Assembly (NCBI GenBank): GCA_902770735.1
Contig: CACXUB010000001.1
Span: 4,687-68,686 of the forward strand
Reading direction: 5' to 3'
Length of the DNA stretch: 64,000 nucleotides
Source: an uncultured Bacteroidota bacterium
Lineage (GTDB): Bacteria > Bacteroidota > Bacteroidia > Bacteroidales > WCHB1-69
Shown here: piece by piece, positions 7,000 through 61,407 of the stretch
How the letters are laid out: the number at the start of each line of letters is the position of its first letter
How positions within the stretch are numbered: position 1 is the first letter of the stretch
Made by a program: the position numbers and the translations under genes
The notes under the pieces: model-generated
Seen by the model: only the letters and a program-made list of their open reading frames with translations
What the model was told of the DNA's origin: nothing
Database searches by the model: none

Positions 7000-7482
7000 A
7001 TGACGAAGAAAAACTTACTAATTGAATTACTGGAAGATAGCGGAAAAGTCAGCTTGTATTCTCCACGTTTTGAAGGCGAAGAATTCACAGAATTTGAGAA
7101 ATTTTTGATCCGATTTAAGGATACTTATCCTAACGACGTGGCTCAGCTCGTATATCGCTTAGATATCATTAAGCGTGATGGAGCGGCGGATAGGCACTTC
7201 AGATATGAGGGAACTCTACATGATCGAGTGATGGCATTACCTTCTCATTTAGAAACGACATCTTTGCGACTCTATCTTCTTAACATTCAGTCTAAAATTC
7301 TAATACTTGGAAATGGCGGGCTAAAAACCACTACCACGTATCAAGAAGATAATCATTTGAATAGATGTGTGCAAACATTGCAAAAAATCGATATCGAATT
7401 GAAACAACTTGAAAGGAAGAATATTCTTACTATAAAGGGCACCCAAATCATAGGTCCTATATTGCTTGAAATTAACGATTAA
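7000..7482 (+). CDS. RelE/HigB-like (Gp49/DUF891-like) putative toxin with N-terminal extension
   Basis: 160 aa. The C-terminal half ...LRLYLLNIQSKILILGNGGLKTTTTYQED... resembles the Gp49/HigB core. It sits directly upstream of an XRE HTH gene in an AT-rich context. Confidence 0.45.
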   Translation: MTKKNLLIELLEDSGKVSLYSPRFEGEEFTEFEKFLIRFKDTYPNDVAQLVYRLDIIKRDGAADRHFRYEGTLHDRVMALPSHLETTSLRLYLLNIQSKILILGNGGLKTTTTYQEDNHLNRCVQTLQKIDIELKQLERKNILTIKGTQIIGPILLEIND

Positions 7483-7492
7483 ATATAATGAT

Positions 7493-7795
7493 ATGAAAAC
7501 CAATAAGTTGATGGATGAAATTAGACAGACCATGACTCCTGAAATGAAAAAGCAGATGGAGTTGTCGGTGAGCATAGCCAATCGTATTTATGAGATTTTA
7601 GATGAGAGAGGGATGAGTCAGAAGGATTTGGCGCGTGCACTGGGCAAAACAGAAACCGAAGTTAGCAGATGGCTTTCCGGAACGCACAACTTAACCACCG
7701 CCACCATCGCGAAGATATCTGTTGCCCTTGGCCAGGATATTATCCAAGTTGTCCGTCCTCGCAAGAAAATGAAGTTGGCAGCGGCTGTATTGTAA
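7493..7795 (+). CDS. XRE-family helix-turn-helix protein (HigA-like putative antitoxin)
   Basis: MSQKDLARALGKTETEVSRWLSGTHNLTTATIAKIS is a classic XRE HTH. ATG 7493 lies 11 nt after the upstream stop. Confidence 0.75.
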   Translation: MKTNKLMDEIRQTMTPEMKKQMELSVSIANRIYEILDERGMSQKDLARALGKTETEVSRWLSGTHNLTTATIAKISVALGQDIIQVVRPRKKMKLAAAVL

Positions 7796-7958
7796 CCTCA
7801 ATTCTTTGGACTGATTCGCGACCGAAGCATCTCCCATAATGTCGCAATGTGTTGATAGCGTTTTTTTCGCTCGCGAGACTCCGAAAAAAGAGTGAAGGGC
7901 TTTGCAGAAATTACTTGCCACAAATCACAATTCCCTGTTCATTAAAACCAAAAAATTG

Positions 7959-7966
7959 TATCTTTG
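7959..7966 (+). promoter_or_regulatory. -7 promoter box (TATCTTTG) for gcvP
   Basis: Lies 50 nt upstream of ATG 8016. Confidence 0.55.
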
Positions 7967-8015
7967 CCTTTCCTAAAATTTGTACAAAAGTATTAATAAC
8001 AAACTGATAATCAAT

Positions 8016-16884: not shown

Positions 16885-17679
16885 TTACTGTTTTTTCACG
16901 CTGAAAACATCCCTCCCGTTTTCGCGCAGCACCTCCTGCGCCTCGCGGTTCTGCATGATGCTGCCGCCGAAGATATTGAAATCGAAAATGTAAGGGTTTG
17001 AGAACCAGGCGTTCACGTTCATCTGCAGGGTGAGCTCGGCGGTTTCTTTGTGGATGACCGCGAACTGCTCCAACGGCAGCGTCACGGTAAAGTTGTTGTC
17101 GGCGAAACCACTGTCGGTGGCGATTTTGCCCGAATGCAGGTTGAAGGGCTGCCGCACGCCGGAGCCATCGATCCAGCGACCGTTGATCTTCATGTAATGG
17201 TAGCCACCGCCGAGGATGTCGGGCCAGCTCATGTTGTTCTCCGGCGGATTCGGGAAAAAGCCGGTGGCGTTCTGTGCCCCCTCCAACCCGAACACAAACG
17301 TGATGGATTTGTACTCGTCGGCGGGCAAGAGGTCCGAGATGCTCCACGAAAGCGTTTTTGGAATACGGATGTCGGTGTAGTGAATCCCTTGATTATCGGC
17401 AATTTCCACTATCTCGCCGGAGGTGGTTTCCAACTTCACATGCGAAATGAAAAACTGCACGTCGTTGACTTCATACAAATTCCCTGCGGCATTCCGATAC
17501 ATGCAAGTATCCAACCGCAGGGAATCATTATCAACGACAAAAGAAAAATTCAGTTTGAGATGACCTGTTGGAGTACGCGTGCAGGCACAACACAGCAGAA
17601 CCAACGCTGCATGCAAAAACTTTCTGCTAACTCGGGAAAGCCCGCTCACGCTTAGATTTCGTCTATCGACATTGTACAT
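16885..17679 (-). CDS. MbnP-like lipoprotein (putative metal-binding protein family)
   Basis: Lipobox LLCCAC. The pattern LKLNFSFVV...YRNAAGNLYEVNDVQFFISHVKL...GGGYHYMKINGRW...NAWF resembles Bacteroidota MbnP-family proteins. No MbnH-like peroxidase is adjacent. Confidence 0.5.
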   Translation of the reverse strand: MYNVDRRNLSVSGLSRVSRKFLHAALVLLCCACTRTPTGHLKLNFSFVVDNDSLRLDTCMYRNAAGNLYEVNDVQFFISHVKLETTSGEIVEIADNQGIHYTDIRIPKTLSWSISDLLPADEYKSITFVFGLEGAQNATGFFPNPPENNMSWPDILGGGYHYMKINGRWIDGSGVRQPFNLHSGKIATDSGFADNNFTVTLPLEQFAVIHKETAELTLQMNVNAWFSNPYIFDFNIFGGSIMQNREAQEVLRENGRDVFSVKKQ

Positions 17680-18863: not shown

Positions 18864-19877
18864 TCACGGATACAACACATACATTTTCCGTACCATGTCC
18901 CGCATCGTTTTGACGGCGGCCTCGGGCGCGAGGATTTTGACACCCGGCCCGAAAGAGAGGATCTGCGCGTAAAATTCCACATTCAACACCACTTTGATTT
19001 CGAAAATCACCTTCCCCGTGTCCTCGTCGCGTTCCAAAACCATCTGCGATGCATGTAACGGCTTGGTTTCCACGTAAGGCGCCTGATCTTTGTCGGCCTC
19101 GAAACGAACCGTCGCCAAAGGGGTTTTGCGCGTCTTGGTCACCCCAATCACATCCTTGAAAAAAGTGCGGCTGTCAAAGCCTTTCTTTTCGACAAATTGC
19201 TCATTATCGGCTGGTTCAATTCCTTTGATTCGGTCCAAAGCCATCGTCAGCAATTTTCCGTCGCGATGCCGCATGCCGAGCAAAAACCAACGGTTCCGAT
19301 ACTCTTTCAGCAAGTAGGGCGAAACCGTCCATGTTTTGGTTTCCAGGGACGTAAAAGACTGATAATGAACATTTATGACTTGCTTTCTGGAAATATAGTT
19401 GTACAAAGGGTTGAGGTATTTCAGTCCGATGAGGTTGCTGTTCCGCTCGAAATCCACTATGGGCTTGCGATTCGACTTGGAAACGGCCAACTGGTCCTGC
19501 ATTCGGTTGACCACATCGCTCATCTCCGTGAAGAAGTCGAAATCCTGAAACTGCCGCAACATGCCCACAGCCTCCTGCATCATCTCGTAATCCCGCTGTG
19601 ACAACGGCAAATTGGTGATGGAGTAGTCGGGATCGGCATAACGGTAGTACTTCTGTTCATAAACCTCAATCGGGGCGTTGTATCCATAGCGGTCGCTGCG
19701 CATCATCTGCAAATCCAGTTGAACCGTCCGTTTGGAGATGTTCCCGACCCCTTCATAGTCGTACAGCGCTTCGGAGCAGGCATCTACCAGCATGTCCAAA
19801 GTCCACCGCTTGCACCGGTTGCGCAAACAGTTGTCTATGGTCTTATATCGGATCAGTGCATTTTTTGTTAAAGGCAT
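18864..19877 (-). CDS. WYL-domain transcriptional regulator (HTH-WYL)
   Basis: ORF trimmed to MPLTKNALIRYKTIDNCLRN... (338 aa). WYL core SPYLLKEYRNRWFLLGMRHRDGKLLTMALDRIKGI. Divergent from rtcB. Confidence 0.82.
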   Translation of the reverse strand: MPLTKNALIRYKTIDNCLRNRCKRWTLDMLVDACSEALYDYEGVGNISKRTVQLDLQMMRSDRYGYNAPIEVYEQKYYRYADPDYSITNLPLSQRDYEMMQEAVGMLRQFQDFDFFTEMSDVVNRMQDQLAVSKSNRKPIVDFERNSNLIGLKYLNPLYNYISRKQVINVHYQSFTSLETKTWTVSPYLLKEYRNRWFLLGMRHRDGKLLTMALDRIKGIEPADNEQFVEKKGFDSRTFFKDVIGVTKTRKTPLATVRFEADKDQAPYVETKPLHASQMVLERDEDTGKVIFEIKVVLNVEFYAQILSFGPGVKILAPEAAVKTMRDMVRKMYVLYP

Positions 19878-19930
19878 ATTACTAATATTCAGAATGTTAT
19901 AAACTTCGTCAAAGAAAAAAATCACTTTTG

Positions 19931-19938
19931 CAAAAATA
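19931..19938 (-). promoter_or_regulatory. -7 promoter box (TATTTTTG on the minus strand) for the WYL regulator
   Basis: The plus strand reads caaaaata. It lies about 54 nt upstream of ATG 19877. Confidence 0.5.
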
Positions 19939-19946
19939 ATTTTTTT

Positions 19947-19969
19947 ACTACGCAAAAAGATTGCGTAGT
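19947..19969. promoter_or_regulatory. Perfect 9-bp inverted repeat (candidate operator) between divergent promoters
   Basis: ACTACGCAA-aaaga-TTGCGTAGT, lying between the two -7 boxes at 19931-38 and 19977-84. Confidence 0.55.
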
Positions 19970-19976
19970 GGGGTTT

Positions 19977-19984
19977 TATTTTTG
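19977..19984 (+). promoter_or_regulatory. -7 promoter box (TATTTTTG) facing rtcB
   Basis: TAnnTTTG match about 114 nt upstream of ATG 20098. The leader contains the TAAGTC array. Confidence 0.45.
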
Positions 19985-20039
19985 CCGCCGAATTTAAAAG
20001 TGAAACGTTTCCACCTAAATTCAAAAACAAAAATGAGCT

Positions 20040-20083
20040 TAGTCTAGGTCTAAGTCTAAGTTTAAGTTTAAGTCTAAGTCTAA
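20040..20083. repeat. Hexamer array (TAAGTY)n upstream of rtcB
   Basis: tagtctaggtctaagtctaagtttaagtttaagtctaagtctaa. Confidence 0.9.
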
Positions 20084-20097
20084 AAATTATCGGAATT

Positions 20098-21270
20098 ATG
20101 AAAGAATTTATGATTGAAAACACACCGGTCAAGATGTGGGCGTCCGTATGTGACGTGAAGGCCTGGAGAGAGATTTCGAACTTGTGCAGTCTGCCGTTTC
20201 TTTTCCATCATCTCGCGCTGATGCCGGATGTACACGGCGGTGTGGGGATGCCCATCGGGGCAGTGTTGGCCACGAAAGGGGTGGTCATCCCCAATGCGGT
20301 CGGGGTTGACATCGGTTGCGGAATGTGCGCGGTGAAGAGTTCGCTCCGTGTGGAGGATCTTCCGCAGGAGACGCTGCGCAAGGTCATCATGCGCAATATC
20401 CGCAAGCGCATCCCAGTGGGTATGGAGCATCACAAAACCGCTCAGGATGAAGCACTTATGCCGCAAGATTTCGACATCGAGCAGACGACAGTGGTGAAAC
20501 GTCAGTATGTGGCCGCCACCAAGCAGATCGGCACGCTGGGCGGTGGCAACCATTTCATCGAATTACAGCGCGACGAGGAGGGCTTTGTCTGGATTATGCT
20601 GCATTCCGGATCCCGAAATTTGGGCAAGCAGGTGTGCGACTACTACGACAAGCTCGCCCGCCAGCTGAACGAGCGATGGTTTTCCACCGTCGATCCAGCG
20701 ATGGAGCTTTCGTTCCTGCCGGTGAGGAGCCCCGAGTTCCACCAATATTGGGCGGAAATGCAGTATTGCGTGGCATTCGCGTTAGCCAACCGTTCGCTGA
20801 TGATGCAGCGCATTATGGAAATTTTGCAAGATGCTTATCCGGACATCACGTTCGAGCCGATGATCAACATCGCGCACAACTACGCCGCGTGGGAGAACCA
20901 TTTCGGGGAGAATGTGATCGTGCACCGCAAGGGAGCCACCCGTGCCCGAGTCGGCGAGGTGGGCATCATCCCCGGGTCGCAGGGAACTTGCTCCTACATT
21001 GTGGAGGGCTTGGGCAACGAGAACAGTTTCCTGAGTTGTTCGCACGGTGCCGGACGACTGATGAGCCGTACGGAAGCACAGAACACCATCGACTTGCAGG
21101 CGGAAATCGCCTTCCTCGACGCGCAGAACATCGTCCACGGCATCCGAACCCGCAGCGACCTCGACGAGGCACCTTCAGCGTACAAAAACATCGACGAGGT
21201 GCTGGCGCAGGAGTCCGACCTCGTGAAAATCCTGACCAAGCTGCACCCCATCGCCGTCATCAAAGGATAA
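20098..21270 (+). CDS. rtcB: RNA 3'-phosphate ligase RtcB
   Basis: 390 aa. Motifs MPDVHGGVGMPIG, GGGNHFIEL, HSGSRNLG, HRKGAT and SCSHGAGR. Confidence 0.92.
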   Translation: MKEFMIENTPVKMWASVCDVKAWREISNLCSLPFLFHHLALMPDVHGGVGMPIGAVLATKGVVIPNAVGVDIGCGMCAVKSSLRVEDLPQETLRKVIMRNIRKRIPVGMEHHKTAQDEALMPQDFDIEQTTVVKRQYVAATKQIGTLGGGNHFIELQRDEEGFVWIMLHSGSRNLGKQVCDYYDKLARQLNERWFSTVDPAMELSFLPVRSPEFHQYWAEMQYCVAFALANRSLMMQRIMEILQDAYPDITFEPMINIAHNYAAWENHFGENVIVHRKGATRARVGEVGIIPGSQGTCSYIVEGLGNENSFLSCSHGAGRLMSRTEAQNTIDLQAEIAFLDAQNIVHGIRTRSDLDEAPSAYKNIDEVLAQESDLVKILTKLHPIAVIKG

Positions 21271-29507: not shown

Positions 29508-30263
29508 ATGTCAGAAGAGCAACAGAAGGTTTTTTTATACGTTCCATGCCAAATGGACCTGTTCCAGGCGGAGACGGTCACCAGTGTGATCACGGTGCTG
29601 GACCGGCTGGGGCTGTTTTGCCATTATGACCCGGAGAGTACCTGTTGCGGCCGCCGTTTCTTCATGGAAGGGGAAATACAATATGCCAAAGATCTTGGCT
29701 ATCAGGTCATCCACTCCTATACGGAATATTGCGATCTTCACAGCAAGAAGTTCCCGGTGGTCGTCCCTGACGCGGCCTGCGCGGGCTTCATGCGCAGCCA
29801 TTTCGACATGATTCTGAAGAACGCCACGTTGCCCAGCGAACTGAACAATTTCGTCGGGAACTTGTACGAACTTTGCGATTTCATCGTCAATGTTTTGAAT
29901 GTGAATTATTTAAATAATGTTTTCCCTCACCGCGTCTTCTATTTCAAATCGTGTGCGGCCAAACATCTCTATCCCGAAAACAATGCTCCTGAGACATTGC
30001 TTCGAAACACGAAAGGGCTGGATTTAATTGAAGACACGGAAGAAAAAAACTGTTGTTGCGGCGCCAACGGGCGTTTTGCCATGCTCAATCCTGACACGGC
30101 GGAAAAGATGACGGGTTCCATTATGGCCCGCGCCTACGAAAAGGGGGCGGAATACATCACTTCCACCGACATTCACTGTCTTCAGCTCATGGACGCCTAT
30201 AAGCAGCAGCACGGCGTGGATATCGACATCATCCACATCGCTGATATTCTCCGCGGCGAATGA
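29508..30263 (+). CDS. (Fe-S)-binding CCG-domain protein, LutA/GlpC-like
   Basis: Two Cys-rich CCG-type modules (VPCQMD...TCCGRRF; FKSCAAKH...NCCCGANG). No lutB/lutC are adjacent. Confidence 0.72.
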   Translation: MSEEQQKVFLYVPCQMDLFQAETVTSVITVLDRLGLFCHYDPESTCCGRRFFMEGEIQYAKDLGYQVIHSYTEYCDLHSKKFPVVVPDAACAGFMRSHFDMILKNATLPSELNNFVGNLYELCDFIVNVLNVNYLNNVFPHRVFYFKSCAAKHLYPENNAPETLLRNTKGLDLIEDTEEKNCCCGANGRFAMLNPDTAEKMTGSIMARAYEKGAEYITSTDIHCLQLMDAYKQQHGVDIDIIHIADILRGE

Positions 30264-32746: not shown

Positions 32747-35700
32747 TTATTTCTTGATGATCTTGGCAACCTGAACTTGATGTTCGCGGTTTTCAATTTT
32801 CAGAATGTAAACACCTGATACATAATTTCTTACATCAATTTCTGCAAGATTGTCCGTCAGACGGCCGCCTTGCAGCAACTTGCCGTTCAGCGTGAACAGC
32901 TGGTAGGTGTAATCTTGGTTTTCCGTGCCGTCGCCAAGTTGCACATGCAGTACATCCGTGGCGGGATTCGGCCATACCCGGAACATGGCGGCCTCTTGCG
33001 AAATCTCTTCGATGCCCACGGGATTGTTGATTTGGCCACTGGGGAAGGAGATGTCGTCAAGGTAAGCGCAGTCGCTGCCGTCGCTGCCCCAGTAGTCCTT
33101 GGAATAGGTCCAGGTGTAGGTATGCATGCCCGAATCCACGGGGAAGGAGGCGCAGGTCCACGGGATACTGCCGCTCCATTCACCCATATTTTGGTTGTCA
33201 ATCTTGAAGGTCAGTTTGTCATAACCCTCCTCACTGGAGACTTTGTAGAAGAAGGAGATACTGTCGTTAACCGTGGCAAGCGTGGTTATACGCAGCATGG
33301 TGTTGGCGTTGCCGCCGATATGTCCCGACTTCACGCAAAATGCACCTGAATGCGGTGATTGGCTGACAGCGGTCCAGGGAATGGAGGAGTTGTTCTGCCA
33401 GTCCATGTTGGTGAAATTCCCGGTTTCCCAGTCTTCCACCACAGCCCCGATCTTGATGGGGAACACAGCGGAGGCATGGAAGAAATTCACCCAGAGACTG
33501 GCTTTCAGGAACGTGATGGTCGGCGTTTGGATGTAGCTGGGAGCGGAGACCGGAACAGTGACCGTCACGGAACCGTTGACATCGATGGGTGCGAAAAGGA
33601 TGGAGTCGGTTTGCAGAATCAGTTCTTCGCCGGGATTGAAGAAGAAGATGTTTCCGCCGATAATCGGCATATTGCCCGTGTTGGTGATGGTGATCTTGCA
33701 GTCGAAGGACTCGTTGTAGTCGGCGCGGTGGTTGCCGTTGCCCGACTGGGTGTCGTCAATCGTCATGGAGGTGATTTTCAAAATCGGTGCATACAGTTTC
33801 AACGATTTTTTCTGCACGATGGTGTCGTTGTTTAAGATGATTTCCATCTTGATGATCGCGTTGTGATTGGCGGGCACCACATCGGCCACCTTGAAGGCGA
33901 AAGTAGGAGGTGCGGCCAACGTGTCGTGCGAAGCCAGCGAGGGAATTGTCAAAACACTGTTGTTCAGCGTGATATATTCATCATCCGTGAAAAGATTGAT
34001 TTTGATGTTGGAAGCGGCCTGGTTGCCGATATTGACGATTGTCGGGGTGACCTTCATAGTCTTTCCGAACTCGGGCAGATTGTTGGTGCGGTTGTTCACG
34101 AAAGGCACAACCTGGTCGGTCAAGGCGATGTCACCGACAATCACGTAAGGTCCATTGTTGGGGATGAACGCAATCGTGCCATCGTAAGGCAGGTAGTTGG
34201 GGGCCGTGGCAAGAACCCGGAGCGTGTCGGTCGGGAGGTAGGTGTTGTCAAACGTGATCGTGAACTCGCCGTTCGTGATTTGTCCCGACGCCAAAATTTC
34301 GCCACCGTGGGTGACGGTGATTTTCGCGCCCTCCACAGCTGAGGAGAAGGTGATGGACGGCACGCCGACAGGGACAATGTCGTTATAGGTTACCTCAAGC
34401 TGCTCGGGAACTGCGGTGCGCACCTGAAGCGTCGGGTCGCCGAAGAGAATCCAGGTGCGGAAGACTTCCACATCGTTGTAGTTGTCCAGCATTTTGATCA
34501 TTCCGTTGAAGAAAATGCCGCCGAAGGTGAATTTTTTCTGTGCCGGATTGGTGCCGACGAGCAGGTCGATCATAGCGTCTTGGGCGCACATCGGCGAGTT
34601 CCACGGCTGGTTGATGGTGGAACCGGTCATGCCGACGGCACCGGTCGGGTTGCCCTGATGTGTGGCCCGCAGCCAAGCTTCCGCGAAGCAGGTGCCCGTG
34701 TGGTATTCTCCGTTCACACAGGCGACGGAAAGGATAAACGGCAGCTTCCCGACATTTGTCAACGAATTGACATTGGAGTTGTTGAAGCTGGTCGTCACCC
34801 ACATCTGCACGTCGCCGTGGCCGCAATAGCTGATGATGCCCACGCCGCTGTTCACTGCGGTGCTCACCATAGACGCTGTCGGGTTGCCGGAAGCGTCCAG
34901 ACCGCCTTGGCTGCCCTCAAACAACTCATAACCAGATGTATAGGTGTAATTCTGCAACTTGTTGTCAATGTTGCGGATATGCTGGTAGTCGTATTCGTTG
35001 TTGTCACCAGGACCCTGGTTGGAGGCGATGCCTAAGAACGACGGGAAATGGGAGGTTTCCGACGGATTTTGCTCATATTCGATGAAACGACGGACCTGTG
35101 TCTCCAATTGCGTCACCGTTTCGGCAGAAAGTTTGCCCAAAATGATGTCAGGATAGGAGTCGTTGCCGGCGATTTCCGTGAAATAGTTGTCGGATTTGTT
35201 GCCGCTGACAGTGGGGGTGGGGAATTGGGAGTTGTCGCCCACGATGAGCACAAAAGCCAAGTTATGCTCGTTGTAATAGTTTGAAATATAAGTCTTTATA
35301 GAGTTAGCGTTGTTTCCGGCGGCGGCCACAGTGACCATCTCCACCTTGAAGCCGTTGCGGGTTTTCCAATCGGCGTAGGGTTGCAACGTTTCCATGAAGT
35401 TTTCGGGGGCGATGATGAGAATCTCACCTTCCTCGACCACAGGAGTGCTGCGCAACTGATTGTAGTTCAGGAATTGATAAGCATATACGGCATCGAAAGT
35501 GCGGTTGTTCTTCTGGGCGGCGACAAACGAGCGGCCGCTGTTGAAGCGCACCTTGACGGTCACGGATGAGTAGGCTTTCAGCATCTTGGCGACAGGGTTG
35601 TAGTCGAAGGGATAAACCTTGACGCTGACCCCGTGGAAGTCGCGCAACTGGTACGTGCCGCCGATTTCCGCCGCATGACCGTCCAACAGATACTGGGAAG

Positions 35701-36094
35701 TCTGATAATCAGCGCTTTTCGTATATGGGACGTTGTCCGGATTCACGTTGCGGTAGAGTTTTCCCTTAGAGGGCGCAAGTGCGAAATTCGGGATTTCAAC
35801 GAACTGAGCGTCAATCAGTTCTGCTTCCGGTTGACTGCCCTCCGGAATGATGAGGGAGAAGGCGGTCAGCAGCATTTCGGGACTGCCCGCTTTCAGCACG
35901 GGATAGGCTTCCGACATGTGCAATTTCTGCATTTCTTCCCCGTTAACGGTCACTGTTTCAGTGTGGTAGGTGCCGAAATCGACACGCACCACCGCTTCGT
36001 TCTGGTTGGAACTGAGCAGGGTGTAGTTGATGTTTTGCGCCTGGATGAGTGAGATTCCAAGCAGGATGAAGATGATTGTTGTGAGTTTTTTCAT
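32747..36094 (-). CDS. C25 (gingipain-like) cysteine peptidase with propeptide, MAM-like domain and T9SS type-A C-terminal sorting domain
   Basis: Catalytic contexts ISYCGHGD and LSVACVNGEY. N-terminal propeptide-like ...VKVYPFDYNP... C-terminus ...VWPNPATDVLHVQL...VSGVYILKIEN... Confidence 0.8.
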   Translation of the reverse strand: MKKLTTIIFILLGISLIQAQNINYTLLSSNQNEAVVRVDFGTYHTETVTVNGEEMQKLHMSEAYPVLKAGSPEMLLTAFSLIIPEGSQPEAELIDAQFVEIPNFALAPSKGKLYRNVNPDNVPYTKSADYQTSQYLLDGHAAEIGGTYQLRDFHGVSVKVYPFDYNPVAKMLKAYSSVTVKVRFNSGRSFVAAQKNNRTFDAVYAYQFLNYNQLRSTPVVEEGEILIIAPENFMETLQPYADWKTRNGFKVEMVTVAAAGNNANSIKTYISNYYNEHNLAFVLIVGDNSQFPTPTVSGNKSDNYFTEIAGNDSYPDIILGKLSAETVTQLETQVRRFIEYEQNPSETSHFPSFLGIASNQGPGDNNEYDYQHIRNIDNKLQNYTYTSGYELFEGSQGGLDASGNPTASMVSTAVNSGVGIISYCGHGDVQMWVTTSFNNSNVNSLTNVGKLPFILSVACVNGEYHTGTCFAEAWLRATHQGNPTGAVGMTGSTINQPWNSPMCAQDAMIDLLVGTNPAQKKFTFGGIFFNGMIKMLDNYNDVEVFRTWILFGDPTLQVRTAVPEQLEVTYNDIVPVGVPSITFSSAVEGAKITVTHGGEILASGQITNGEFTITFDNTYLPTDTLRVLATAPNYLPYDGTIAFIPNNGPYVIVGDIALTDQVVPFVNNRTNNLPEFGKTMKVTPTIVNIGNQAASNIKINLFTDDEYITLNNSVLTIPSLASHDTLAAPPTFAFKVADVVPANHNAIIKMEIILNNDTIVQKKSLKLYAPILKITSMTIDDTQSGNGNHRADYNESFDCKITITNTGNMPIIGGNIFFFNPGEELILQTDSILFAPIDVNGSVTVTVPVSAPSYIQTPTITFLKASLWVNFFHASAVFPIKIGAVVEDWETGNFTNMDWQNNSSIPWTAVSQSPHSGAFCVKSGHIGGNANTMLRITTLATVNDSISFFYKVSSEEGYDKLTFKIDNQNMGEWSGSIPWTCASFPVDSGMHTYTWTYSKDYWGSDGSDCAYLDDISFPSGQINNPVGIEEISQEAAMFRVWPNPATDVLHVQLGDGTENQDYTYQLFTLNGKLLQGGRLTDNLAEIDVRNYVSGVYILKIENREHQVQVAKIIKK

Positions 36095-52550: not shown

Positions 52551-52913
52551 TTATTTCGGAGTATTTTCCTTAGTCGTTTTAACTATAGATGATAACATTC
52601 TGATGAGTTCGTCATTGTCATTCTTTAATGATTTGTATTCCATTTCTGTTAAGTAGTCTGCTGAATAAAGAATTTCAATCCAGTAATCTGTTTCTCCTGC
52701 TTCTTTTAATGCGATATTCATTTTGCTGATGAAATCCTTACGACTTTGGGCAAACAATCCTTCCCTTATGTTAGCACCTATGCTAGTTCCTGATCGAAGA
52801 ATTTGTTTAGACATAATTGTTTCTTTCTTTTTGTCAACTAAAAAACGATAAAGCTTTGCTATTCTTTTTGCGAAAGCCAAACTTTTATCTCCAACTATGC
52901 TCTGCCTCGCCAT
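52551..52913 (-). CDS. Four-helix-bundle protein (23S rRNA intervening-sequence protein family)
   Basis: ILRSGTSIGANIREG...SRKDFISKMNIALKEAGETDYWIEIL. AT-rich. Confidence 0.78.
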   Translation of the reverse strand: MARQSIVGDKSLAFAKRIAKLYRFLVDKKKETIMSKQILRSGTSIGANIREGLFAQSRKDFISKMNIALKEAGETDYWIEILYSADYLTEMEYKSLKNDNDELIRMLSSIVKTTKENTPK

Positions 52914-54527: not shown

Positions 54528-55418
54528 CTATTGAATTTTCCTAAAACTTACGTTATAAAATTGTCCTTCCGTAGGAGCGTATGCAGGATACTCCCACGAA
54601 TAAATAAAGAAAACGGTATCATTTATGAATTTTGTTTTGTTTATGTAATTCGGCATATGATAACCGAGATTTTCGCGGAAATAGACAAGATAGGAGCAGG
54701 TGTTTGTGTATTCATAGCCGTTTTCCATGACCCCTCCTCCCTGTTTCTTTTGAATCATCGTGTTTTCTGTGAAAACCAATGTGTCTCCAGGCCATGAATC
54801 TGTACAATTATAATCGGGATCTTCGTTCATGTCTAAAGTCCAGCAACGAGACACCCATGTCCCCAAGTAACGATTAACGGCTGGCACTTCTGGATCAACT
54901 GCATGTGCTTCTGTAGAGGTGTCAATCCTAACGAAACAAGATGTTGTTGTTGGATTGCTTCCTGGGATATTCGCCAGAGTTCCTGTAATTTTTAACTCTG
55001 TATCATCCATACGGAAGCTGTAAACCACCCTGTTGGGCCTTAATTGTTGATTTGTTTCGTAAAAAATCAGGAAAGAGGGCGTGCAATCATACACAAAAGT
55101 CACAGATTCCGAACCGTGCCGAATGGTCAGCACATTGTCAGCCGTAAAAACAATGGTATCAATAGATGTCAGATTATTAGTACAGGCGCATGGGGGCTCC
55201 TCATCTGAGGAAGATTGCCCGCACAGCACCCACGTGCCTATGAATTTGTTGGCAGGCAGGGTGTCCGTGTCCACCACTGGCGGGGTGGGATCCGGTTCGG
55301 GTTCCGGTTCCGGCCGCTCGCACGCGGCGAACAGGGCGGAGAAAGCCAACGCCGCGACGCAAAACACGCCAAGGATACGGCTTCCTCTTTTCGCTAATTG
55401 TAATATCATCTTTCCCAT
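54528..55418 (-). CDS. Hypothetical lipoprotein with an internal two-fold repeat
   Basis: Lipobox LFAAC, PEPEPEPDPTPP linker. The repeats begin NKFIGTWVLCG... and NRYLGTWVSRC... Confidence 0.6.
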   Translation of the reverse strand: MGKMILQLAKRGSRILGVFCVAALAFSALFAACERPEPEPEPDPTPPVVDTDTLPANKFIGTWVLCGQSSSDEEPPCACTNNLTSIDTIVFTADNVLTIRHGSESVTFVYDCTPSFLIFYETNQQLRPNRVVYSFRMDDTELKITGTLANIPGSNPTTTSCFVRIDTSTEAHAVDPEVPAVNRYLGTWVSRCWTLDMNEDPDYNCTDSWPGDTLVFTENTMIQKKQGGGVMENGYEYTNTCSYLVYFRENLGYHMPNYINKTKFINDTVFFIYSWEYPAYAPTEGQFYNVSFRKIQ

Positions 55419-55481
55419 TGTTTTGGGGATTAAATTGGATTATTTGATTCGGCAAAAATACGTTTTTTCGATTTTCGGTCG

Positions 55482-55540
55482 GCGAATTTTGCGAATTGCA
55501 AGTCTGCGAATTTTGCGAATTATGCGAATTGAGAATTGAG
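55482..55540. repeat. Oligomer array (GCGAATT / GAGAATT units)
   Basis: gcgaattttgcgaattgcaagtctgcgaattttgcgaattatgcgaattgagaattgag. Confidence 0.88.
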
Positions 55541-55552
55541 ATCCGAGACGTT

Positions 55553-55580
55553 GTAGGGGCGAATGATTATTCGCCCCTAC
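55553..55580 (-). terminator. Perfect 12-bp stem hairpin after the NarI-like gene (no U-tract)
   Basis: gtaggggcgaat-gatt-attcgcccctac, 22 nt downstream of the stop at 55602. Confidence 0.55.
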
Positions 55581-55601
55581 ATCCCTGAATATCGTTGTTT
55601 C

Positions 55602-56249
55602 TCACTTCTCTCTATTCGGCCACACATTCCGCCAGCCATAGAAGAACCCCAGATGATACCGCGCGGCGAAATAATAGACCGCGTGGCGGAGTTTGCCCAA
55701 CGGCATGTAAAGGAACAGCAGGATGCTGCTTATATAATATAATATTGTAACAGACCCGCAACAGGTCGAGCAGCACAGGTAGAGCGTTGTCATCAGCTGG
55801 AAGAGGGTCACCAGTCCACAAGAGATGTAGTCATCCGGCATAGTGAAGGGCTTCAAATCCTTGGAAACCAGTCTTCTGACGAACAGTATGATGCCGCAGA
55901 TAGTGCCCAAAGCGGTGGGAATCGCTAAAAGCAGATGCCAATTGCAGCCGCTGCCGATCCAGTTGTTGAAGAAGGGGAAGAAGGAGAGCACGAAGAAGAG
56001 CAGGCAGCAGAAGGCGCCGACGTGGAACAGCATGCCCGTGGCGTAGGACGGGATGTGCAGGTAGGCCGACTCCTTCTGGTTGGGCATCATGGCTATGGTG
56101 TTGGCATAAACCACGCCCTCCTTCACACTACCGCTCGGCTCCGACTTGTCTTTCGGGGCACCCAAACGGATGACCTTGACCAAATGTGCCAATAAACTAA
56201 CAGCGCAATAAACTGCTGCAGCTATTGCGAGATATTGCATTATACTCAT
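55602..56249 (-). CDS. 5-TM membrane protein, NarI/DsrM-like (putative b-type cytochrome / quinol-interacting subunit)
   Basis: 215 aa with five predicted helices. His residues lie in TM segments (H21, H76, H105). The C-terminal motif MPLGKLRHAVYYFAARYH resembles the P..KL.H tail of nitrate-reductase-gamma-like proteins. Assigned by eye only. Confidence 0.45.
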   Translation of the reverse strand: MSIMQYLAIAAAVYCAVSLLAHLVKVIRLGAPKDKSEPSGSVKEGVVYANTIAMMPNQKESAYLHIPSYATGMLFHVGAFCCLLFFVLSFFPFFNNWIGSGCNWHLLLAIPTALGTICGIILFVRRLVSKDLKPFTMPDDYISCGLVTLFQLMTTLYLCCSTCCGSVTILYYISSILLFLYMPLGKLRHAVYYFAARYHLGFFYGWRNVWPNREK

Positions 56250-56253
56250 AATT

Positions 56254-56286
56254 GTAAGTTTAGAGTTTAAGGTTTAAGGTTTATAG
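56254..56286. repeat. Oligomer array (GTTTAAG/GTTTAGA)n downstream of dsrC
   Basis: gtaagtttagagtttaaggtttaaggtttatag. It shares the exact 16-mer agagtttaaggtttaa with 56722-56737. Confidence 0.9.
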
Positions 56287-56290
56287 ATTT

Positions 56291-56358
56291 CTGGCTGTTG
56301 GAGTTAACGAATCATTTGTAACCAAAAGCCAATAGCCAATGGCTAACAGCCAATAGCC
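56291..56358. repeat. GCTATTGGC-family block (inverted arrangement)
   Basis: ctggctgttgg ... aaaagccaatagccaatggctaacagccaatagcc, running up to the dsrC stop codon. Confidence 0.85.
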
Positions 56359-56675
56359 TACACGCAACCTTCAGGTTTCGGGAGACCGGCGACGCGGCAG
56401 GCGCCTCTCGCGGGACCGAGCGGGAACAGCTCGTAGATGTCCTTCAGTTTCAGATTGGCGGTCTTGCAGATGGTGCGGACCATCGGGGCGATGCCCTTTT
56501 CCTCGTAGTTGGCGCGGATGCAATCCACCACTTTCCAGTGATTCTCCGTCATCTCCGTGATACCATCGGCTTTGGCGATCTCCGCAGCCAGCTCCTTGTT
56601 CCATTCTTCGGGATGGATCATGAAGCCGTCTCCGTCCATCTCGTAGGTTTTGTTATTGAATTCGATATTTGCCAT
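56358..56675 (-). CDS. dsrC: DsrC/TusE-family protein with both C-terminal-arm cysteines (DsrC-type)
   Basis: 105 aa. It ends ...GACRVAGLPKPEGCV, with Cys93 and penultimate Cys104 spaced 11 apart as in dissimilatory DsrC. Confidence 0.82.
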   Translation of the reverse strand: MANIEFNNKTYEMDGDGFMIHPEEWNKELAAEIAKADGITEMTENHWKVVDCIRANYEEKGIAPMVRTICKTANLKLKDIYELFPLGPARGACRVAGLPKPEGCV

Positions 56676-56698
56676 AATGATGAAATTTTTTAGAGGCG

Positions 56699-56706
56699 CA
56701 AAGATA
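56699..56706 (-). promoter_or_regulatory. -7 promoter box (TATCTTTG on the minus strand) for dsrC
   Basis: Lies about 24 nt upstream of ATG 56675. Confidence 0.55.
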
Positions 56707-56715
56707 CATTTTTTT

Positions 56716-56750
56716 TAGTTCAGAGTTTAAGGTTTAAAGTTTAGAGTTAG
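56716..56750. repeat. Oligomer array (GTTTAAG/GTTTAGA)n upstream of dsrC, overlapping the rSAM stop codon
   Basis: tagttcagagtttaaggtttaaagtttagagttag. Direct orientation relative to 56254-56286. Confidence 0.9.
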
Positions 56751-58321
56751 GGGATATAGTAGTCTGTGCTTGGGGAAAGGGCTTTCGGGCAGTTGGGCGC
56801 GGGGTAGTCGTAGTTTTCGTCCCCGTAGGCGTCAACGGCTAACCGCCAGCAGTTTCCCAACCCTCGTCGGCATTTTTCGAATTCGTCGCAAGTTTTGCAT
56901 GGACTTTCGTCGCGGACCTCTTTTTGTGAGAAATTCCACCGCGTGAGCGCCCTTTTCGAGTCCCACATTTCCATGATCGACTGCCGTGTGAGGTCGCCGA
57001 GGATGAAGAACGGATGCCAGTACATCCGCTCACAGTAGGTCGCCTTGCCGTCGGGGAGCACGAAAAAACCGTGGACGTTGCCGGCGCATATCCGGCGGTT
57101 CGGGAAACCCTCCACCCGCTGCGCCACCGACAAGGGCTCTTCACACTCTGCGAAAGAGATTTCCGCCACGCTGTCCCGGTTCCGCTCCTCCGCGACGGCT
57201 CTCAACCGCGCCAACTGTGATCGGTTGCTGAAGTAGCTGTCGCTCGGCTTGAAACGGCTGAACTCGGCCGGCGTGAAACCGATGTGCGTGACGTTCCGGA
57301 AGGATGTCAGCACGTCTATCGTGTTGTTCAGCGATTGCTCGGTGTCGTTGTACCGGGTAATTACAGACCTCACGGCGACTTCGATGCCGGCCTCGTCCAA
57401 CAGCCGCAACCCGTCCAGCACCCTTTCGAGGTAACTGTTGTCCACGCGGAGCATCTGCTGCAGCTCGTCATTGTCCACGCTGTCGATAGATAGCTGTATA
57501 TTCTTGATATTCAGATATTTCAGTTCTTCAACTGTCTTTTCGGACAAGGGATATTTGGTGGAGATGAGCGGAACAAAGTCATAGTTTCGCATTTCGGCAA
57601 GCAGATTCTGCCAATGCGGGTAGAGAAAAAAATCGCCGCCGTCCACGTCCACGTTGGGCATTCCCAGCAGGTAAGCCTCTTTCAGCAGTTCCAAAAGACG
57701 GGGAAACGGAATGGGTTTCCGGATTACCGGTCTGTCGGCGTAGCAATAGATGCAGTCGGTCGCGCATGTGGTGTTGAGCATCAGGGTCATGCTGTTGGGC
57801 ACGCGCAGTCGGACTTCCGACAGGTCGAAGTGCTGGCGGGCGAAAGGGATGTCAATGTCCACAAGCATATATTCGCGGGTGAACCCAGCCGTGTTGGGAA
57901 TCAGGAAGTTTTTCGGAATCGGGCACCACTGGCCGTCGTCGGCCGGAATCATGATCGGTTCCTCGTTACAGATGCAGGGCTTCACGGTATCGATGAATTG
58001 GGTTTTGTCCATCCCATATTGACCGCAGAAGATCTCCGCCACCTCCTCCAGCGTATAGATTCCTTTAAAAGAGTCGAAAAGGACGGCCAGGTTGGGGTGA
58101 ATGCGCCAGACAAATCCTTCCGTGATGTCGTTCCGTTGCCGGGCGGCGCTGTAGCGCGCGGGGTTGTTGTTCGTGAGGACGACATTGTTCCAATCGCTTT
58201 TGAATTTGTAGGCCGGATTGACCACATACACCTGGTGAATGTCCATTTTCGATGCAAACAAATGTCTGCCGTCGGCGATTTTTTCATTTTCCCGCTTTAG
58301 GGGTTGTGTGTTCTTTTTCAT
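56747..58321 (-). CDS. Radical SAM / SPASM-domain enzyme with ~170-aa N-terminal extension (possible peptide/protein-recognition domain)
   Basis: CX3CX2C at residues 186-193 (CATDCIYC). C-terminal Cys cluster CAGNVHGFFVLPDGKATYC ... CKTCDEFEKCRRGLGNC. 524 aa. Confidence 0.85.
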   Translation of the reverse strand: MKKNTQPLKRENEKIADGRHLFASKMDIHQVYVVNPAYKFKSDWNNVVLTNNNPARYSAARQRNDITEGFVWRIHPNLAVLFDSFKGIYTLEEVAEIFCGQYGMDKTQFIDTVKPCICNEEPIMIPADDGQWCPIPKNFLIPNTAGFTREYMLVDIDIPFARQHFDLSEVRLRVPNSMTLMLNTTCATDCIYCYADRPVIRKPIPFPRLLELLKEAYLLGMPNVDVDGGDFFLYPHWQNLLAEMRNYDFVPLISTKYPLSEKTVEELKYLNIKNIQLSIDSVDNDELQQMLRVDNSYLERVLDGLRLLDEAGIEVAVRSVITRYNDTEQSLNNTIDVLTSFRNVTHIGFTPAEFSRFKPSDSYFSNRSQLARLRAVAEERNRDSVAEISFAECEEPLSVAQRVEGFPNRRICAGNVHGFFVLPDGKATYCERMYWHPFFILGDLTRQSIMEMWDSKRALTRWNFSQKEVRDESPCKTCDEFEKCRRGLGNCWRLAVDAYGDENYDYPAPNCPKALSPSTDYYIP

Positions 58322-58365
58322 TTTGCTTCTTTAGTTTTAGGTTAAATTTTGTTTGTTTGTCGTGG

Positions 58366-58373
58366 CAAAGATA
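58366..58373 (-). promoter_or_regulatory. -7 promoter box (TATCTTTG on the minus strand) for the rSAM gene
   Basis: Lies about 45 nt upstream of ATG 58321. Confidence 0.55.
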
Positions 58374-58625
58374 CAACACAGAAAAGCCTTTGTCAAGTGT
58401 TTTGGAATATTTTTTGTATTTACCTAAAAATCAAACTGATACAAGCCTTTTCGGGCTTTTTTCCGAAAATTTTTTAACAATTAATAGTAAATATTTTGAC
58501 ACACTTTCGCAAAATTTCGCGTGATTTAGTGAAAAACGGACATGATTCGGGAGCGTGTTCGGGGGCGTGTTTCGGCCAAAAAAATAATTAAAAAAAATGG
58601 GTGGCAGAGATATATGAAAAAAGTG

Positions 58626-58633
58626 TATCTTTG
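58626..58633 (+). promoter_or_regulatory. -7 promoter box (TATCTTTG) for rpsO
   Basis: Lies 50 nt upstream of ATG 58683. Confidence 0.55.
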
Positions 58634-58682
58634 CCGCCGATTTAAAAATAGGTAAAAAGATAAATTAAAAGCAGTTAGAAGT

Positions 58683-58952
58683 ATGTATTTGACAAACGAC
58701 GTTAAGAAAGAAATTTTCGCGAAATACGGCAAGAACGAGAAAGACACCGGATCTCCCGAGGCTCAAGTTGCCCTGTTTACGCACCGCATCAAACACCTGA
58801 CCGAGCATGTGAAGCAAAACCAAGGCGACCGCGTGACCAAACGCGCCCTCATCACCCTGGTCGGCAAGCGCAAAAAAATGCTCGAGTACCTCAAGCAACA
58901 AGACATCGAACGCTACAGAGCGTTGATCAAGGAATTAGGCTTAAGAAAATAA
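58683..58952 (+). CDS. rpsO: 30S ribosomal protein S15
   Basis: 89 aa. ...GSPEAQVALFTHRIKHLTEHVKQN... Confidence 0.95.
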   Translation: MYLTNDVKKEIFAKYGKNEKDTGSPEAQVALFTHRIKHLTEHVKQNQGDRVTKRALITLVGKRKKMLEYLKQQDIERYRALIKELGLRK

Positions 58953-58975
58953 TTTTTACAGGCGATTTCAGTATT

Positions 58976-59008
58976 CAAAAAGGCAATTTTGATGAAAATT
59001 GCCTTTTT
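58976..59008 (+). terminator. Intrinsic terminator/attenuator between rpsO and pnp
   Basis: aaaaaggcaatttt-gatg-aaaattgccttttt. Confidence 0.75.
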
Positions 59009-59055
59009 GAATATTTGTTATTGCCCAAACTCGTACAATCTAAAAAAACAGCATT

Positions 59056-61407
59056 ATGAATTTAGGAGTAAGAACAACATTCGATATCGGTGACGGTCGT
59101 ATGGTTACGATTGAAACCGGCAAATTGGCGAAGCAGGCCGACGGCGCCGCTGTCGTCACCATGGGCAACACCATGCTCCTCGCAACGGTGTGTTGCAAAA
59201 AAGAAGCTGTGGAAGGCACCGATTTCATGCCTCTGCAGGTTGAATATCAAGAAAAATACGGCGCTGTGGGTCGTTTCCCCGGCGGCTTCTTCAAACGCGA
59301 GGCCCGTCCCTCCGAGTATGAAATCCTCATCGCTCGTCTGGTGGACCGCGCCATCCGTCCGCTCTTCCCCAAGAACTTCCACGCTGAAACTCAGGTCGTT
59401 GTGACCCTGATTTCCGGCGACAAGAACTTCCTGCCCGATTGCCTTGCTTGTCTGGCCGCTTCTTCCGCCATCGCTGTCTCCAACATCCCCTTCGAGTGCC
59501 CGATTTCAGAGGTGCGCGTGGGCCGCGTGGATGGACAGCTCGTGGTGAACCCCACCGTCGAGGACATGGAACGCTCCGACATCGACATGATCGTGGCCGC
59601 CTCCATGGACAACATCATGATGGTGGAAGGCGAAATGAAGGAGATTTCCGAGGACGACATGGTCGCCGCTTTGAATTTCGCGAAGGAAGCCATCAAGGTG
59701 CAGTGCCAAGCCCAGCTTGACCTCGCCGCTCAGGTGCCCTCCGCCAACCCGAAACGCGAATACTGCCACGAGACCGACGACGAAGCCATCCGTGACCGCA
59801 TGAACAGCGAGCTCTACGACAAAGTCTATGCCGTCGCCAAGTCCTTCAAGGGCAAACAGGAGCGCAACGCCGACTTCGACCAGATCCTCGCCGACTTCAT
59901 CGAGACCATTCCCGAAGAGGAGCGCGACGAGAAGGCCGTCATGGTGAAACGCTACTACGACGAAATCCTCTGGCACGCCATGCGCAACATGATCCTCGAC
60001 GAGCGTATCCGTCTCGACGGCCGCCATACCGAGGACATCCGTCCCATCTGGATTGAGACCGGCTATCTGCCGTCCGCACATGGTTCCGCCATCTTCACCC
60101 GCGGCGAAACGCAGTCGCTGACCACCTGCACGCTCGGCACCAAGCTCGACGAGCAGATCATCGACGGCGCCGTGGTGGATGGTACCAGCCGTTTCCTGCT
60201 GCACTACAACTTCCCGCCCTACAGCGTGGGTGAGGTGAAACGTATCGGCAGCACCTCCCGTCGCGAGGTCGGTCACGGCAACTTGGCCAAACGCGCCCTC
60301 AAACCGATGATCCCGTTCGACGATCCGTCATTCCCCTATACTGTCCGTTTGGTTTCCGACATTCTCGAGTCCAACGGTAGTTCTTCTATGGCAACGGTTT
60401 GCGCCGGCACTCTCGCCCTGCTCGACTGCGGCGTGAAGATGAAAAAGCCCGTTTCCGGTATCGCCATGGGTTTGATCACCGACGAGGCCACCGGCCGTTA
60501 CGCCATCTTGTCCGATATCCTCGGCGATGAGGACCACCTCGGCGATATGGACTTTAAGGTCTGCGGTACCGAAGACGGTATCACCGCTTGTCAGATGGAT
60601 ATCAAGGTGAAGGGACTCTCCTCCGAAGTGATGGCCGAGGCTCTGGCCCAGGCACACCGTGGCAGAATGTTCATCTTGGGTAAGATCAAAGAGGCCATGC
60701 CGGCTCCGAGAGAGGACTATCGTCCGTTCGTGCCGCGCATCGTCCAAATGCAAATCCCGCGCGAATTCATCGGCGCCGTCATCGGACCTGGAGGCAAGAT
60801 CATCCAAGAGATGCAGCGTGAGACCAACACGGTTATTAATATTGAAGAGGTCGGCGAATTCGGTGTCATCGACATCGCAGCTGCCAATGTGGACGACATC
60901 AACGCCGCTGTGGAGCGCATCAAACTCATCACCACGGAACCCGAGGTGGGTGAAATTTACGAAGGCACGGTCAAGACCATCACTGAATTCGGTGCGTTTG
61001 TGGAATTCCTGCCCAACACCGACGGTCTGCTGCACGTGTCGGAGATCGCCTACCGTCGCATCGAGGACGTGAACGACGTCTTGAGCGTGGGCGACAAGAT
61101 CAAGGTGAAGCTCATCGAGATTGACGAGAAGACTGGCAAATACAGACTGTCGCACAAGGTTCTGCTCCCGAAGCCGGAAGGTTACGAGGAGGAGAGACCG
61201 CGCGGCAACGGCGGCCGTAACGGCAACCGCAACGGCGGCCGTGACAACCGCGGCGACCGCGGACCCCGCCTGGGCGGCGGCGACCGTGACCGCAACCGAA
61301 ACAACAACGGCGGCGGCAACCCCCGTCGCGGCAACAGCAACCAGCACGACGGCCAACGTCACCGTCAAGAACGCCGCGAATTGCCCGACTTCCCTGATAT
61401 GGACTAA
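59056..61407 (+). CDS. pnp: Polyribonucleotide nucleotidyltransferase (PNPase) with a ~70-aa R/G/N-rich C-terminal tail
   Basis: Two RNase PH domains, KH and S1 (..[20 protein letters not shown]..), then [47 protein letters not shown]... Confidence 0.95.

Follow-up and report, generated by a model that had tools for sequence, protein, structure and literature searches.

Two probable units at one Bacteroidales locus: an orphaned peptide maturase and a putative redox operon of DsrC and a membrane anchor

Three co-oriented genes on the minus strand of a 64,000-nt stretch of DNA from an uncultured Bacteroidales bacterium (contig CACXUB010000001.1; the whole stretch is referred to here as the window) encode a radical S-adenosylmethionine (SAM) enzyme, a two-cysteine protein of the DsrC family and a small membrane protein designated M'. 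This arrangement is probably explained by two units, namely an orphaned maturase of ribosomally synthesised and post-translationally modified peptides (RiPPs), and a redox operon composed of dsrC and the M' gene. An earlier note, made from the sequence alone, had taken the trio to be a single module. The listing of open reading frames (ORFs) places all three genes at the coordinates that it had claimed, and the claimed bounds also hold, with rpsO diverging on one side and a stem on the other, although this stem has 13 bp rather than the 12 bp first described. The features of the locus, in window positions, are as follows.

56747-58321, minus strand: 524-aa radical SAM gene, encoding a RiPP maturase with a predicted RiPP recognition element (RRE), a radical SAM domain and a SPASM domain; outside the DsrC unit and without a precursor gene in the window
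56358-56675, minus strand: dsrC (105 aa), encoding a two-cysteine (Cys93, Cys104) dissimilatory-type sulfur/electron carrier
55602-56249, minus strand: M' membrane gene (215 aa), encoding a NarI-fold anchor like DsrM, HmcE and TmcC, with a predicted single heme b
58366-58373, minus strand: TATCTTTG, -7 promoter box as read from the sequence, located in the rpsO-divergent region 45 nt ahead of the start codon of the radical SAM gene
56699-56706, minus strand: TATCTTTG, -7 promoter box 31 nt upstream of the dsrC start codon, the predicted promoter of the pair itself
56250-56357, minus strand: spacer between dsrC and the M' gene, with repeat-built hairpins (RNA fold)
55545-55585, minus strand: stem-loop closing the dsrC–M' unit, a putative terminator without a U-tract
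58683-58952, plus strand: rpsO, divergent from the radical SAM gene

The radical SAM gene is, with very high confidence, independent of the DsrC unit. A protein search with the enzyme delineated a family of approximately 120 clusters, nearly all from metagenome-assembled genomes of Bacteroidales, and 78 loci of this family were collected by scanning one genome per species. By tblastn, DsrC adjoins the radical SAM gene in only the 11 closest of these loci (60-74% identical radical SAM protein), and the M' gene is also present in those 11 except for one, whose sequence stops just past DsrC. The other 67 loci, which are more distant, have neither DsrC nor the M' gene within 6 kb of the radical SAM gene. 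In the close clade, approximately 70 bp to 4.5 kb separate the radical SAM gene from dsrC, and in sister genomes this interval holds 1.2-4.5 kb of unrelated genes, among them those for a 226-aa protein, a 608-aa membrane protein and AAA ATPases, as well as one gene on the opposite strand. The window clade includes JBGUPL01, ONQE01 and the assembly GCA_016295295.1 (JAEEGK01), the last with a radical SAM protein 98% identical to that of the window. The exact DsrC sequence of the window occurs in 265 blocks of a public collection, and contexts were retrieved for ten; loci L093, L095 and L099 encode a 100% identical DsrC along with the M' gene, bear no radical SAM gene within 5 kb, and have a sodium:solute symporter gene or a purN-like gene upstream. 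The synonymous divergence (dS) of the radical SAM gene is 0.8-2.1 compared to 0.3-0.7 for the flanking core genes, which points to a separate history. The possibility that the gene is a pseudogene was ruled out by its intact reading frame and by a ratio of nonsynonymous to synonymous divergence (dN/dS) of 0.12-0.20, indicative of purifying selection. The three-gene module of the earlier note, which had itself listed broken synteny and a different substrate of the radical SAM family as grounds for abandoning it, is refuted on both counts: the trio is not syntenic, and the family has another evident substrate.

The sequence and predicted structure of the radical SAM enzyme place it among peptide maturases. 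Its CX3CX2C motif (Cys186, Cys190 and Cys193) and seven C-terminal cysteines (Cys412, Cys430, Cys475, Cys478, Cys484, Cys491 and Cys511) are invariant in 21 homologues, and the 524-aa protein passes the Pfam cutoffs of both the radical SAM superfamily (PF04055, 53.3 bits; cutoff 29.5) and the SPASM domain (PF13186, 35.7 bits; cutoff 21.5), so that the motif at residues 186-193 and the SPASM-like cysteine cluster initially described both stand. TIGR04085 yields 25.3 bits, slightly below its cutoff of 27, and none of the named radical SAM equivalogs of NCBIfam (PqqE, ScmE, GeoRSP, SkfB, PapB and others) is reached, the best score being 50.7 bits against a cutoff of 400. The N-terminal extension of approximately 170 residues has no PqqD Pfam match at E<0.1. 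In the AlphaFold2 model (predicted local distance difference test, pLDDT, 89), residues 31-116 of this extension fold into three strands and three helices with an RRE-like shape, and the best structural matches to the model in the PDB are SuiB (approximately 500 aligned columns, including its RRE), SkfB, PqqE and CteB.

Candidate substrates are encoded beside many members of the family. A co-oriented ORF for a cysteine-rich peptide with a GG leader occurs within 1.5 kb of the maturase in 41 of the 78 family loci; such precursor candidates number 50 in the 209 kb near the maturase, all 50 on its strand, compared to 7 in the 501 kb farther off. The nearest relatives that keep a precursor (L003, L008, where the precursor is at 5696-5950, L010 and L012-L015) have in common the pattern MK(L/M)SK.ESE.I.GG...C..C..CNT.C..C, and the family probably modifies these adjoining peptides by the introduction of cysteine-derived cross-links. 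Neither the precursor peptides nor the genes inserted in the sister genomes matched any NCBIfam family. The gap between rpsO and the radical SAM gene contains no precursor ORF and the window contains no homologue of the sister precursors, in agreement with the earlier report that none adjoins the gene. A degraded precursor is found in L091 (3067-3213) and L100 (1224-1370), as an ORF that overlaps the start codon of the radical SAM gene, with a recognisable leader, HG in place of GG and no remaining cysteine-rich core; these remnants document the decay of the RiPP cassette in the window clade. A peptide-maturase cassette would have landed between rpsO and dsrC in a lineage of rumen Bacteroidales and would now be decaying there, with some sisters keeping the precursor, others a degraded one, and the window none.

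The broken synteny and the other evident substrate make both hypotheses that the earlier note had built on the module very unlikely. In one of them, the SPASM enzyme would act on the C-terminal arm of DsrC itself, by thioether or other cysteine chemistry at the protein level. The two genes are indeed adjoining and co-oriented in the window and in approximately 17 related loci, the window lacks a precursor gene, purifying selection still acts on the radical SAM gene and the usual substrates of its family are cysteine-rich. However, an identical DsrC with an identical arm occurs without the radical SAM gene, the same arm is found in cassettes (described below) that never carry this gene, and the inserts between the radical SAM gene and dsrC are variable. 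The proposal is further opposed by the promoter that dsrC has of its own, by the ordinary leader-peptide precursors of sister enzymes, including the decaying one of L091 and L100, and by the lack in DsrC of a GG-type leader for binding by the putative RRE domain, such that it is highly improbable. The other hypothesis, that DsrC and M' serve the radical SAM enzyme as a source of electrons or sulfur, draws on adjacency in one clade only and is scarcely credible, as it faces the same evidence from synteny, the 67 more distant family members manage without DsrC nearby, and the DsrC–M' pair has a much wider distribution than the radical SAM gene.

The dsrC and M' genes are interpreted as a two-gene housekeeping operon that has a promoter of its own and ends in a hairpin. 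They adjoin in every Bacteroidales locus seen, across at least six upstream contexts (the radical SAM gene, a symporter, purN, a Fib_succ_major protein, an aldo-keto reductase and an Hnd-type hydrogenase), so the link between DsrC and the membrane gene proposed in the earlier note proves to be tight and widespread. A TAnnTTTG box, the Bacteroidetes-type -7 consensus of Bacteroides promoter studies, precedes the dsrC start by 27-34 nt in 27 of 27 loci from the window clade and sister Bacteroidales clades, irrespective of the upstream gene. The dN/dS of dsrC is 0.005-0.02, comparable to those of the genes for S15 and EF-Tu, and that of the M' gene is 0.08-0.16; DsrC is 96-100% identical across genomes in which PNPase is 92-98% and the radical SAM protein 60-74% identical.

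RNA folding of this unit reveals an unstructured 71-nt gap between the radical SAM gene and dsrC, and a terminal stem of 13 perfect bp (approximately 55545-55585; dG -24.5 kcal/mol, z = -6.4) that none of 200 shuffles matches in stability. The spacer between dsrC and the M' gene (56250-56357) folds at -22.5 kcal/mol (z = -2.3) and its homologue in L006 (12153-12290) at -68 kcal/mol (z = -12). The sequence of this spacer differs among species and the hairpin architecture recurs at the same position, whereas the gap is merely 21-23 bp in other Bacteroidales. The hairpins may attenuate read-through or stabilise the dsrC message. Intergenic spacers of the window lineage consist of short tandem repeats and their own complements, which form long hairpins (also at 55480-55545 in the window), and an 866-bp array of CCTTAAA-like units occupies L005:9211-10076; the motif AAACCTTAAACTCTnAACT is common to both spacers flanking dsrC in the window. 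An Rfam scan of 55300-59100 returned spurious miRNA-like matches on the rpsO terminator hairpin and nothing else. Among neighbours of the pair in other genomes, queA, encoding the tRNA ribosyltransferase-isomerase, begins at the M' stop codon in another Bacteroidales clade (L079-L083, at approximately 6648), with a thioredoxin-like gene next in L082 and L083, and a fusion of a CoA-disulfide-reductase-like domain with a rhodanese domain, of the persulfide-reductase type, is encoded on the opposite strand 4 kb upstream of dsrC in L099 (1-682, minus strand).

DsrC of the window belongs to its family by both PF04358 (124 bits; cutoff 24.9) and TIGR03342 (104 bits; cutoff 53.5), and its C-terminus, GACRVAGLPKPEGCV, carries Cys93 and Cys104. 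The protein aligns over its full length with the DsrC of Desulfomicrobium (2xsj_C; 120 bits) and of D. vulgaris (2v4j_C; 111 bits), with only 44 bits for a TusE-like PDB chain, and its arm, AGLPKPEGCV, is one residue apart from the AGLPKPTGCV of D. vulgaris. Dissimilatory DsrC proteins are delineated in DiSCo by a CysB-X10-CysA-X arrangement and an AGLPKPTGC-type arm (PMC8477390), and the window protein displays both the two cysteines and the arm. The TusE equivalog model NF008562 scores 63.3 bits, below its cutoff of 191, and the second cysteine is present, neither of which is expected of TusE; the protein is thus a two-cysteine DsrC rather than a TusE, as had been claimed initially.

M' is probably a DsrM/HmcE/TmcC-like anchor that binds a single heme b. 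Its AlphaFold2 model (pLDDT 90) displays five transmembrane helices and a C-terminal amphipathic helix, with His76 in the second transmembrane helix and a P183-x-G-K-L-R-H189 motif, and so bears out the earlier description of a five-helix protein with an intramembrane histidine and a P..KL.H motif. A Foldseek comparison with the PDB placed NarI in all of the top eight positions (probability 1.00, TM-score 0.47-0.53), with the next matches below 0.25 probability. NarI emerged from fold comparison only, a PDB profile search with the M' family having returned nothing at E<10, and Pfam offered no match for M' or its relatives. A search of 1.8 billion representative proteins produced 316 relatives at E<=1e-3, mostly stand-alone proteins of approximately 205-215 aa. 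The HmcE model is matched by 30 of 30 family members, the TmcC model by 28 and the DsrM model by 3 (E ~4e-4), and the window protein scores 31 bits with HmcE and 30 bits with TmcC (E ~1e-7) against NCBIfam cutoffs of 275 and 240, respectively. Alignment of the family by hhalign with a canonical, PF02665-positive DsrM (L087) is significant (E = 1.5e-5), and only His76 and His189 coincide with DsrM histidines; these are presumably the equivalents of His56 and His205 in E. coli NarI, the pair that holds the heme of the cytoplasmic side.

A natural fusion, P0287, joins an M'-type membrane domain to Fer4_8 and CCG domains. The resemblance to NarI and DsrM noted earlier is accordingly upheld by the fold, by weak and consistent matches to HmcE and TmcC and by this DsrK-like fusion, but not by the PF02665 and DsrM cutoffs or by the histidines, of which M' has only two of the four expected as ligands of two hemes b. 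Across the family (27-57% identity), P56, K59, G72, H76, R126, D139, D140, K186, H189, R197 and G205 are invariant, and H65 is nearly so. The topology read from the sequence by the positive-inside rule has the N-terminus out and the C-terminus in, with nearly all invariant polar residues facing the cytoplasm, the compartment of DsrC, and this conserved face (K59, E60, H65, R126, D139, D140 and R197) suggests that it continues to serve as the docking site of a partner.

A wider gene set surrounds the pair in other Bacteroidales. Outside the window clade, the M' gene is followed by a gene for a DsrK-like protein of approximately 430-455 aa, designated K', and the order DsrC–M'–K'–cysteine desulfurase is found in L085 and L086. 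A metagenome scan seeded with intermediate members of the M' family added 80 loci (L101-L180), and the same order is present in nearly all of those long enough to show it (e.g. L160:7672-11181). The DsrC arm of these cassettes, PARGACRVAGLPKPDGCV, is one residue off that of the window; exact matches assign the human-gut version of this DsrC to Butyricimonas, which is cultured, and others to a range of Bacteroidales, among them strain CF and MB20-C3-3; in the databases, none has a more specific name than TusE/DsrC family protein. Over its full length, K' is homologous to TmcB (290 bits), HmcF (290 bits) and DsrK (227 bits), below the equivalog cutoffs, and the cassette desulfurase scores 428 bits on TIGR01977 (cutoff 377). 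M' and K' also occur in two other contexts: in L087, the order is ferredoxin–dsrA–dsrB–dsrM–dsrK–M'–K'–dsrC–cbiA/dsrN-like gene, and in L088-L090 (approximately 5150-7920, 6150-8960 and 6180-8925), it is ArsR–DsrE2-like–TusA–M'–K', with TusA in the place of DsrC. The Fer4+CCG subunit of a DsrMK-type module is absent at the window locus and all window-clade loci, and present in L085-L090 and L101-L180. The pair of the window clade is taken to be a reduced form of this widespread Bacteroidales cassette; either K' and the desulfurase must be encoded elsewhere, or the pair must work without both. No description of the pair or of the larger cassette was found in the literature searched, the coverage of which was incomplete.

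The likeliest function of the pair, held with moderate confidence, would be quinone-linked redox cycling of DsrC, by analogy to DsrMK(JOP), the terminal reductase that regenerates DsrC from its trisulfide with menaquinol (PMC10861901; PMC10504309). DsrC would take up sulfane sulfur, donated in the full cassette by the adjoining cysteine desulfurase, become oxidised to a Cys93–Cys104 disulfide or a trisulfide, and be re-reduced at the membrane by electrons of the menaquinone pool that pass through heme b of M'; the reverse direction, with oxidation of DsrC, is also possible. In the full cassette, K', a CCG iron-sulfur protein, would be the expected catalytic disulfide or trisulfide reductase, and the steps together suggest a net conversion of cysteine and menaquinol to alanine, H2S and menaquinone. 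M' lacks the heme pair of the quinol side, and its coupling may therefore be unlike that of DsrM. More broadly, and as a tentative and rather doubtful proposal, gut and rumen Bacteroidales may use DsrC without DsrAB, with the cassette coupling cysteine-derived sulfane sulfur to the menaquinone pool in a form of cysteine-sulfur respiration or sulfide release, and the window lineage, pared to DsrC and its anchor, may cycle without a DsrK-type subunit.

Several observations weigh against redox cycling by the pair. M' has no PF02665 match at E<0.1 and falls below every NCBIfam cutoff, and it lacks the second histidine pair of NarI and DsrM, that of the heme beside the usual quinol site, which makes the oxidation of quinol uncertain. 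No K'-related CCG protein and no cysteine desulfurase is encoded within 5-6 kb of the pair in any window-clade locus or in the 64-kb window, which leaves the catalytic step without an evident enzyme at this locus. A lone 251-aa ORF with two CCG domains (29508-30263, plus strand) was considered as a conceivable stand-in for DsrK and, being dissimilar to K' by tblastn and located 26 kb away, is kept as a lead only; it resembles LutA or the C-terminal part of GlcF and lies between a ribonucleotide reductase gene and ackA, without lutB or lutC.

Two other readings of the pair would remove it from this scheme. DsrC could be an ordinary dissimilatory protein that, with its DsrM2-like partner, serves sulfite respiration by DsrAB or another sulfite reductase and a DsrK encoded elsewhere. 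Consistent with this are its full-length, well-scoring alignment with DsrC of the Desulfovibrionales, the retention of both cysteines and of the AGLPKPxGCV arm, the M' and K' paralogues inside the dsrAB–dsrMK–dsrC operon of L087, and the dsrM2K2 paralogues already noted in sulfate reducers (PMC6018796). However, no dsrAB genes turned up around the pair in Bacteroidales: as the earlier note had stated for the window, tblastn with DsrA, DsrB, DsrM and DsrK queries from L087 found no match in its 64 kb, the approximately 45 window ORFs annotated by Pfam are ordinary Bacteroidota housekeeping genes only, and dsrAB was not found within 5-8 kb in any of approximately 110 Bacteroidales loci bearing the pair or cassette. 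The partner in the cassette is a cysteine desulfurase and not a sulfite reductase, and one host is the cultured Butyricimonas, a presumed fermenter not known to reduce sulfite. In large surveys, genomes with DsrC and no dsrAB figure solely as rare exceptions or false positives (PMC8477390). Sulfite respiration is unlikely. It is also unlikely that the protein acts instead as a TusE-like relay, passing persulfide from a cysteine desulfurase to tRNA 2-thiouridine or another thio-cofactor with M' as a mere anchor or accessory. The database names of TusE or "tRNA 2-thiouridine synthesizing protein E", the desulfurase of the full cassette, the overlap of queA with the M' gene in L079-L083, and the constraint on dsrC, like that on translation genes, and its location among rpsO, pnp and tuf would fit such a role. 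Opposed to these are the score of 63 bits on a TusE equivalog model with a cutoff of 191, the 44 bits with a TusE-like PDB chain compared to 111-120 bits with true DsrCs, and the strict retention of Cys93, a residue that presumably has no counterpart in E. coli TusE. The constant partners, moreover, are of a respiratory type, namely the NarI-fold and DsrK-like proteins, and not TusBCD or MnmA.

DsrC is viewed as the signature partner of dissimilatory sulfite reductase, and where a genome has no dsrAB, its dsrC tends to be written off as a tusE or a false positive. In abundant rumen Bacteroidales, a sulfate-reducer-type DsrC is conserved like a ribosomal protein and always paired with a DsrM-like anchor. 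If the cassette does link cysteine sulfur to the quinone pool, it would give gut anaerobes a previously unrecognised path for energy metabolism and for the formation of H2S, and this idea is directly testable in a cultured organism, the human-gut Butyricimonas. The locus also exemplifies how adjoining and plausible genes, such as those of a radical SAM enzyme and a protein with a cysteine-bearing arm, can lack a functional link.

Elsewhere in the window, a lipoprotein with a PEPEPEP linker and a 23S-rRNA-intervening-sequence protein are encoded at 54528-55418 and 52551-52913, respectively, each present in some sister genomes and not in others, and the stretch that holds them is a hotspot for small insertions. 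Further genes encode an MbnP-like protein (16885-17679), a WYL-domain regulator beside RtcB (18864-21270) and a C25 peptidase that resembles gingipains and bears a type IX secretion tail (32747-36094).

Among known systems, the maturases SuiB, SkfB, CteB, PapB and PqqE are like the radical SAM enzyme of the window in its predicted domain order, in the CX3CX2C motif and seven-cysteine SPASM region, and in the precursor genes that adjoin it in relatives. They differ in that the window enzyme reaches no curated cutoff (approximately 50 against 400 bits) and has no precursor in the window, and in that the precursors of its family are Bacteroidota GG-leader peptides with CxxxC-type repeats and no NCBIfam match. 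E. coli TusE (YccK) shares with the window DsrC the PF04358 domain and the penultimate catalytic cysteine, along with a cysteine desulfurase as the would-be upstream source of sulfur, whereas the window protein has a second cysteine and a DsrC-type arm, scores far below the TusE cutoff and is unlinked to tusBCD or mnmA. The gamma subunit of E. coli nitrate reductase A, NarI, has the five-helix fold of M', and the LFH(I/V)G and P-x-x-K/R-L-x-H motifs line up by eye with the NarI pair His56/His205; M' is set apart by an identity of approximately 15%, by the lack of a second histidine pair and of NarGH partners, and by a long conserved cytoplasmic loop (residues 29-70) specific to its family.

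The best relatives by hidden Markov model are HmcEF and TmcBC of the Desulfovibrio Hmc and Tmc complexes, with M' resembling HmcE and TmcC, and K' resembling HmcF and TmcB over its full length (approximately 290 bits), at similar sizes of approximately 215 and 440 aa. The scores nevertheless fall far below the equivalog cutoffs (31 against 275 bits for M', 290 against 735-750 for K'), M' and K' are accompanied by neither a cytochrome c nor periplasmic subunits, and the host is a fermentative member of the Bacteroidales. In comparison with DsrC and the minimal DsrMK or dsrM2K2 of sulfate and sulfite reducers, the Bacteroidales genes have no linked dsrAB, M' retains one of two heme histidine pairs and fails the PF02665 and DsrM models, a DsrK-like gene is absent at the window locus, and in other Bacteroidales the cassette includes a cysteine desulfurase as partner. 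The two systems nonetheless share a two-cysteine DsrC with the same arm and spacing, a NarI-type partner, and, in relatives of the window locus, an adjoining DsrK-like Fer4+CCG subunit, and paralogues of M' and K' reside within the dsr operon of L087 itself.

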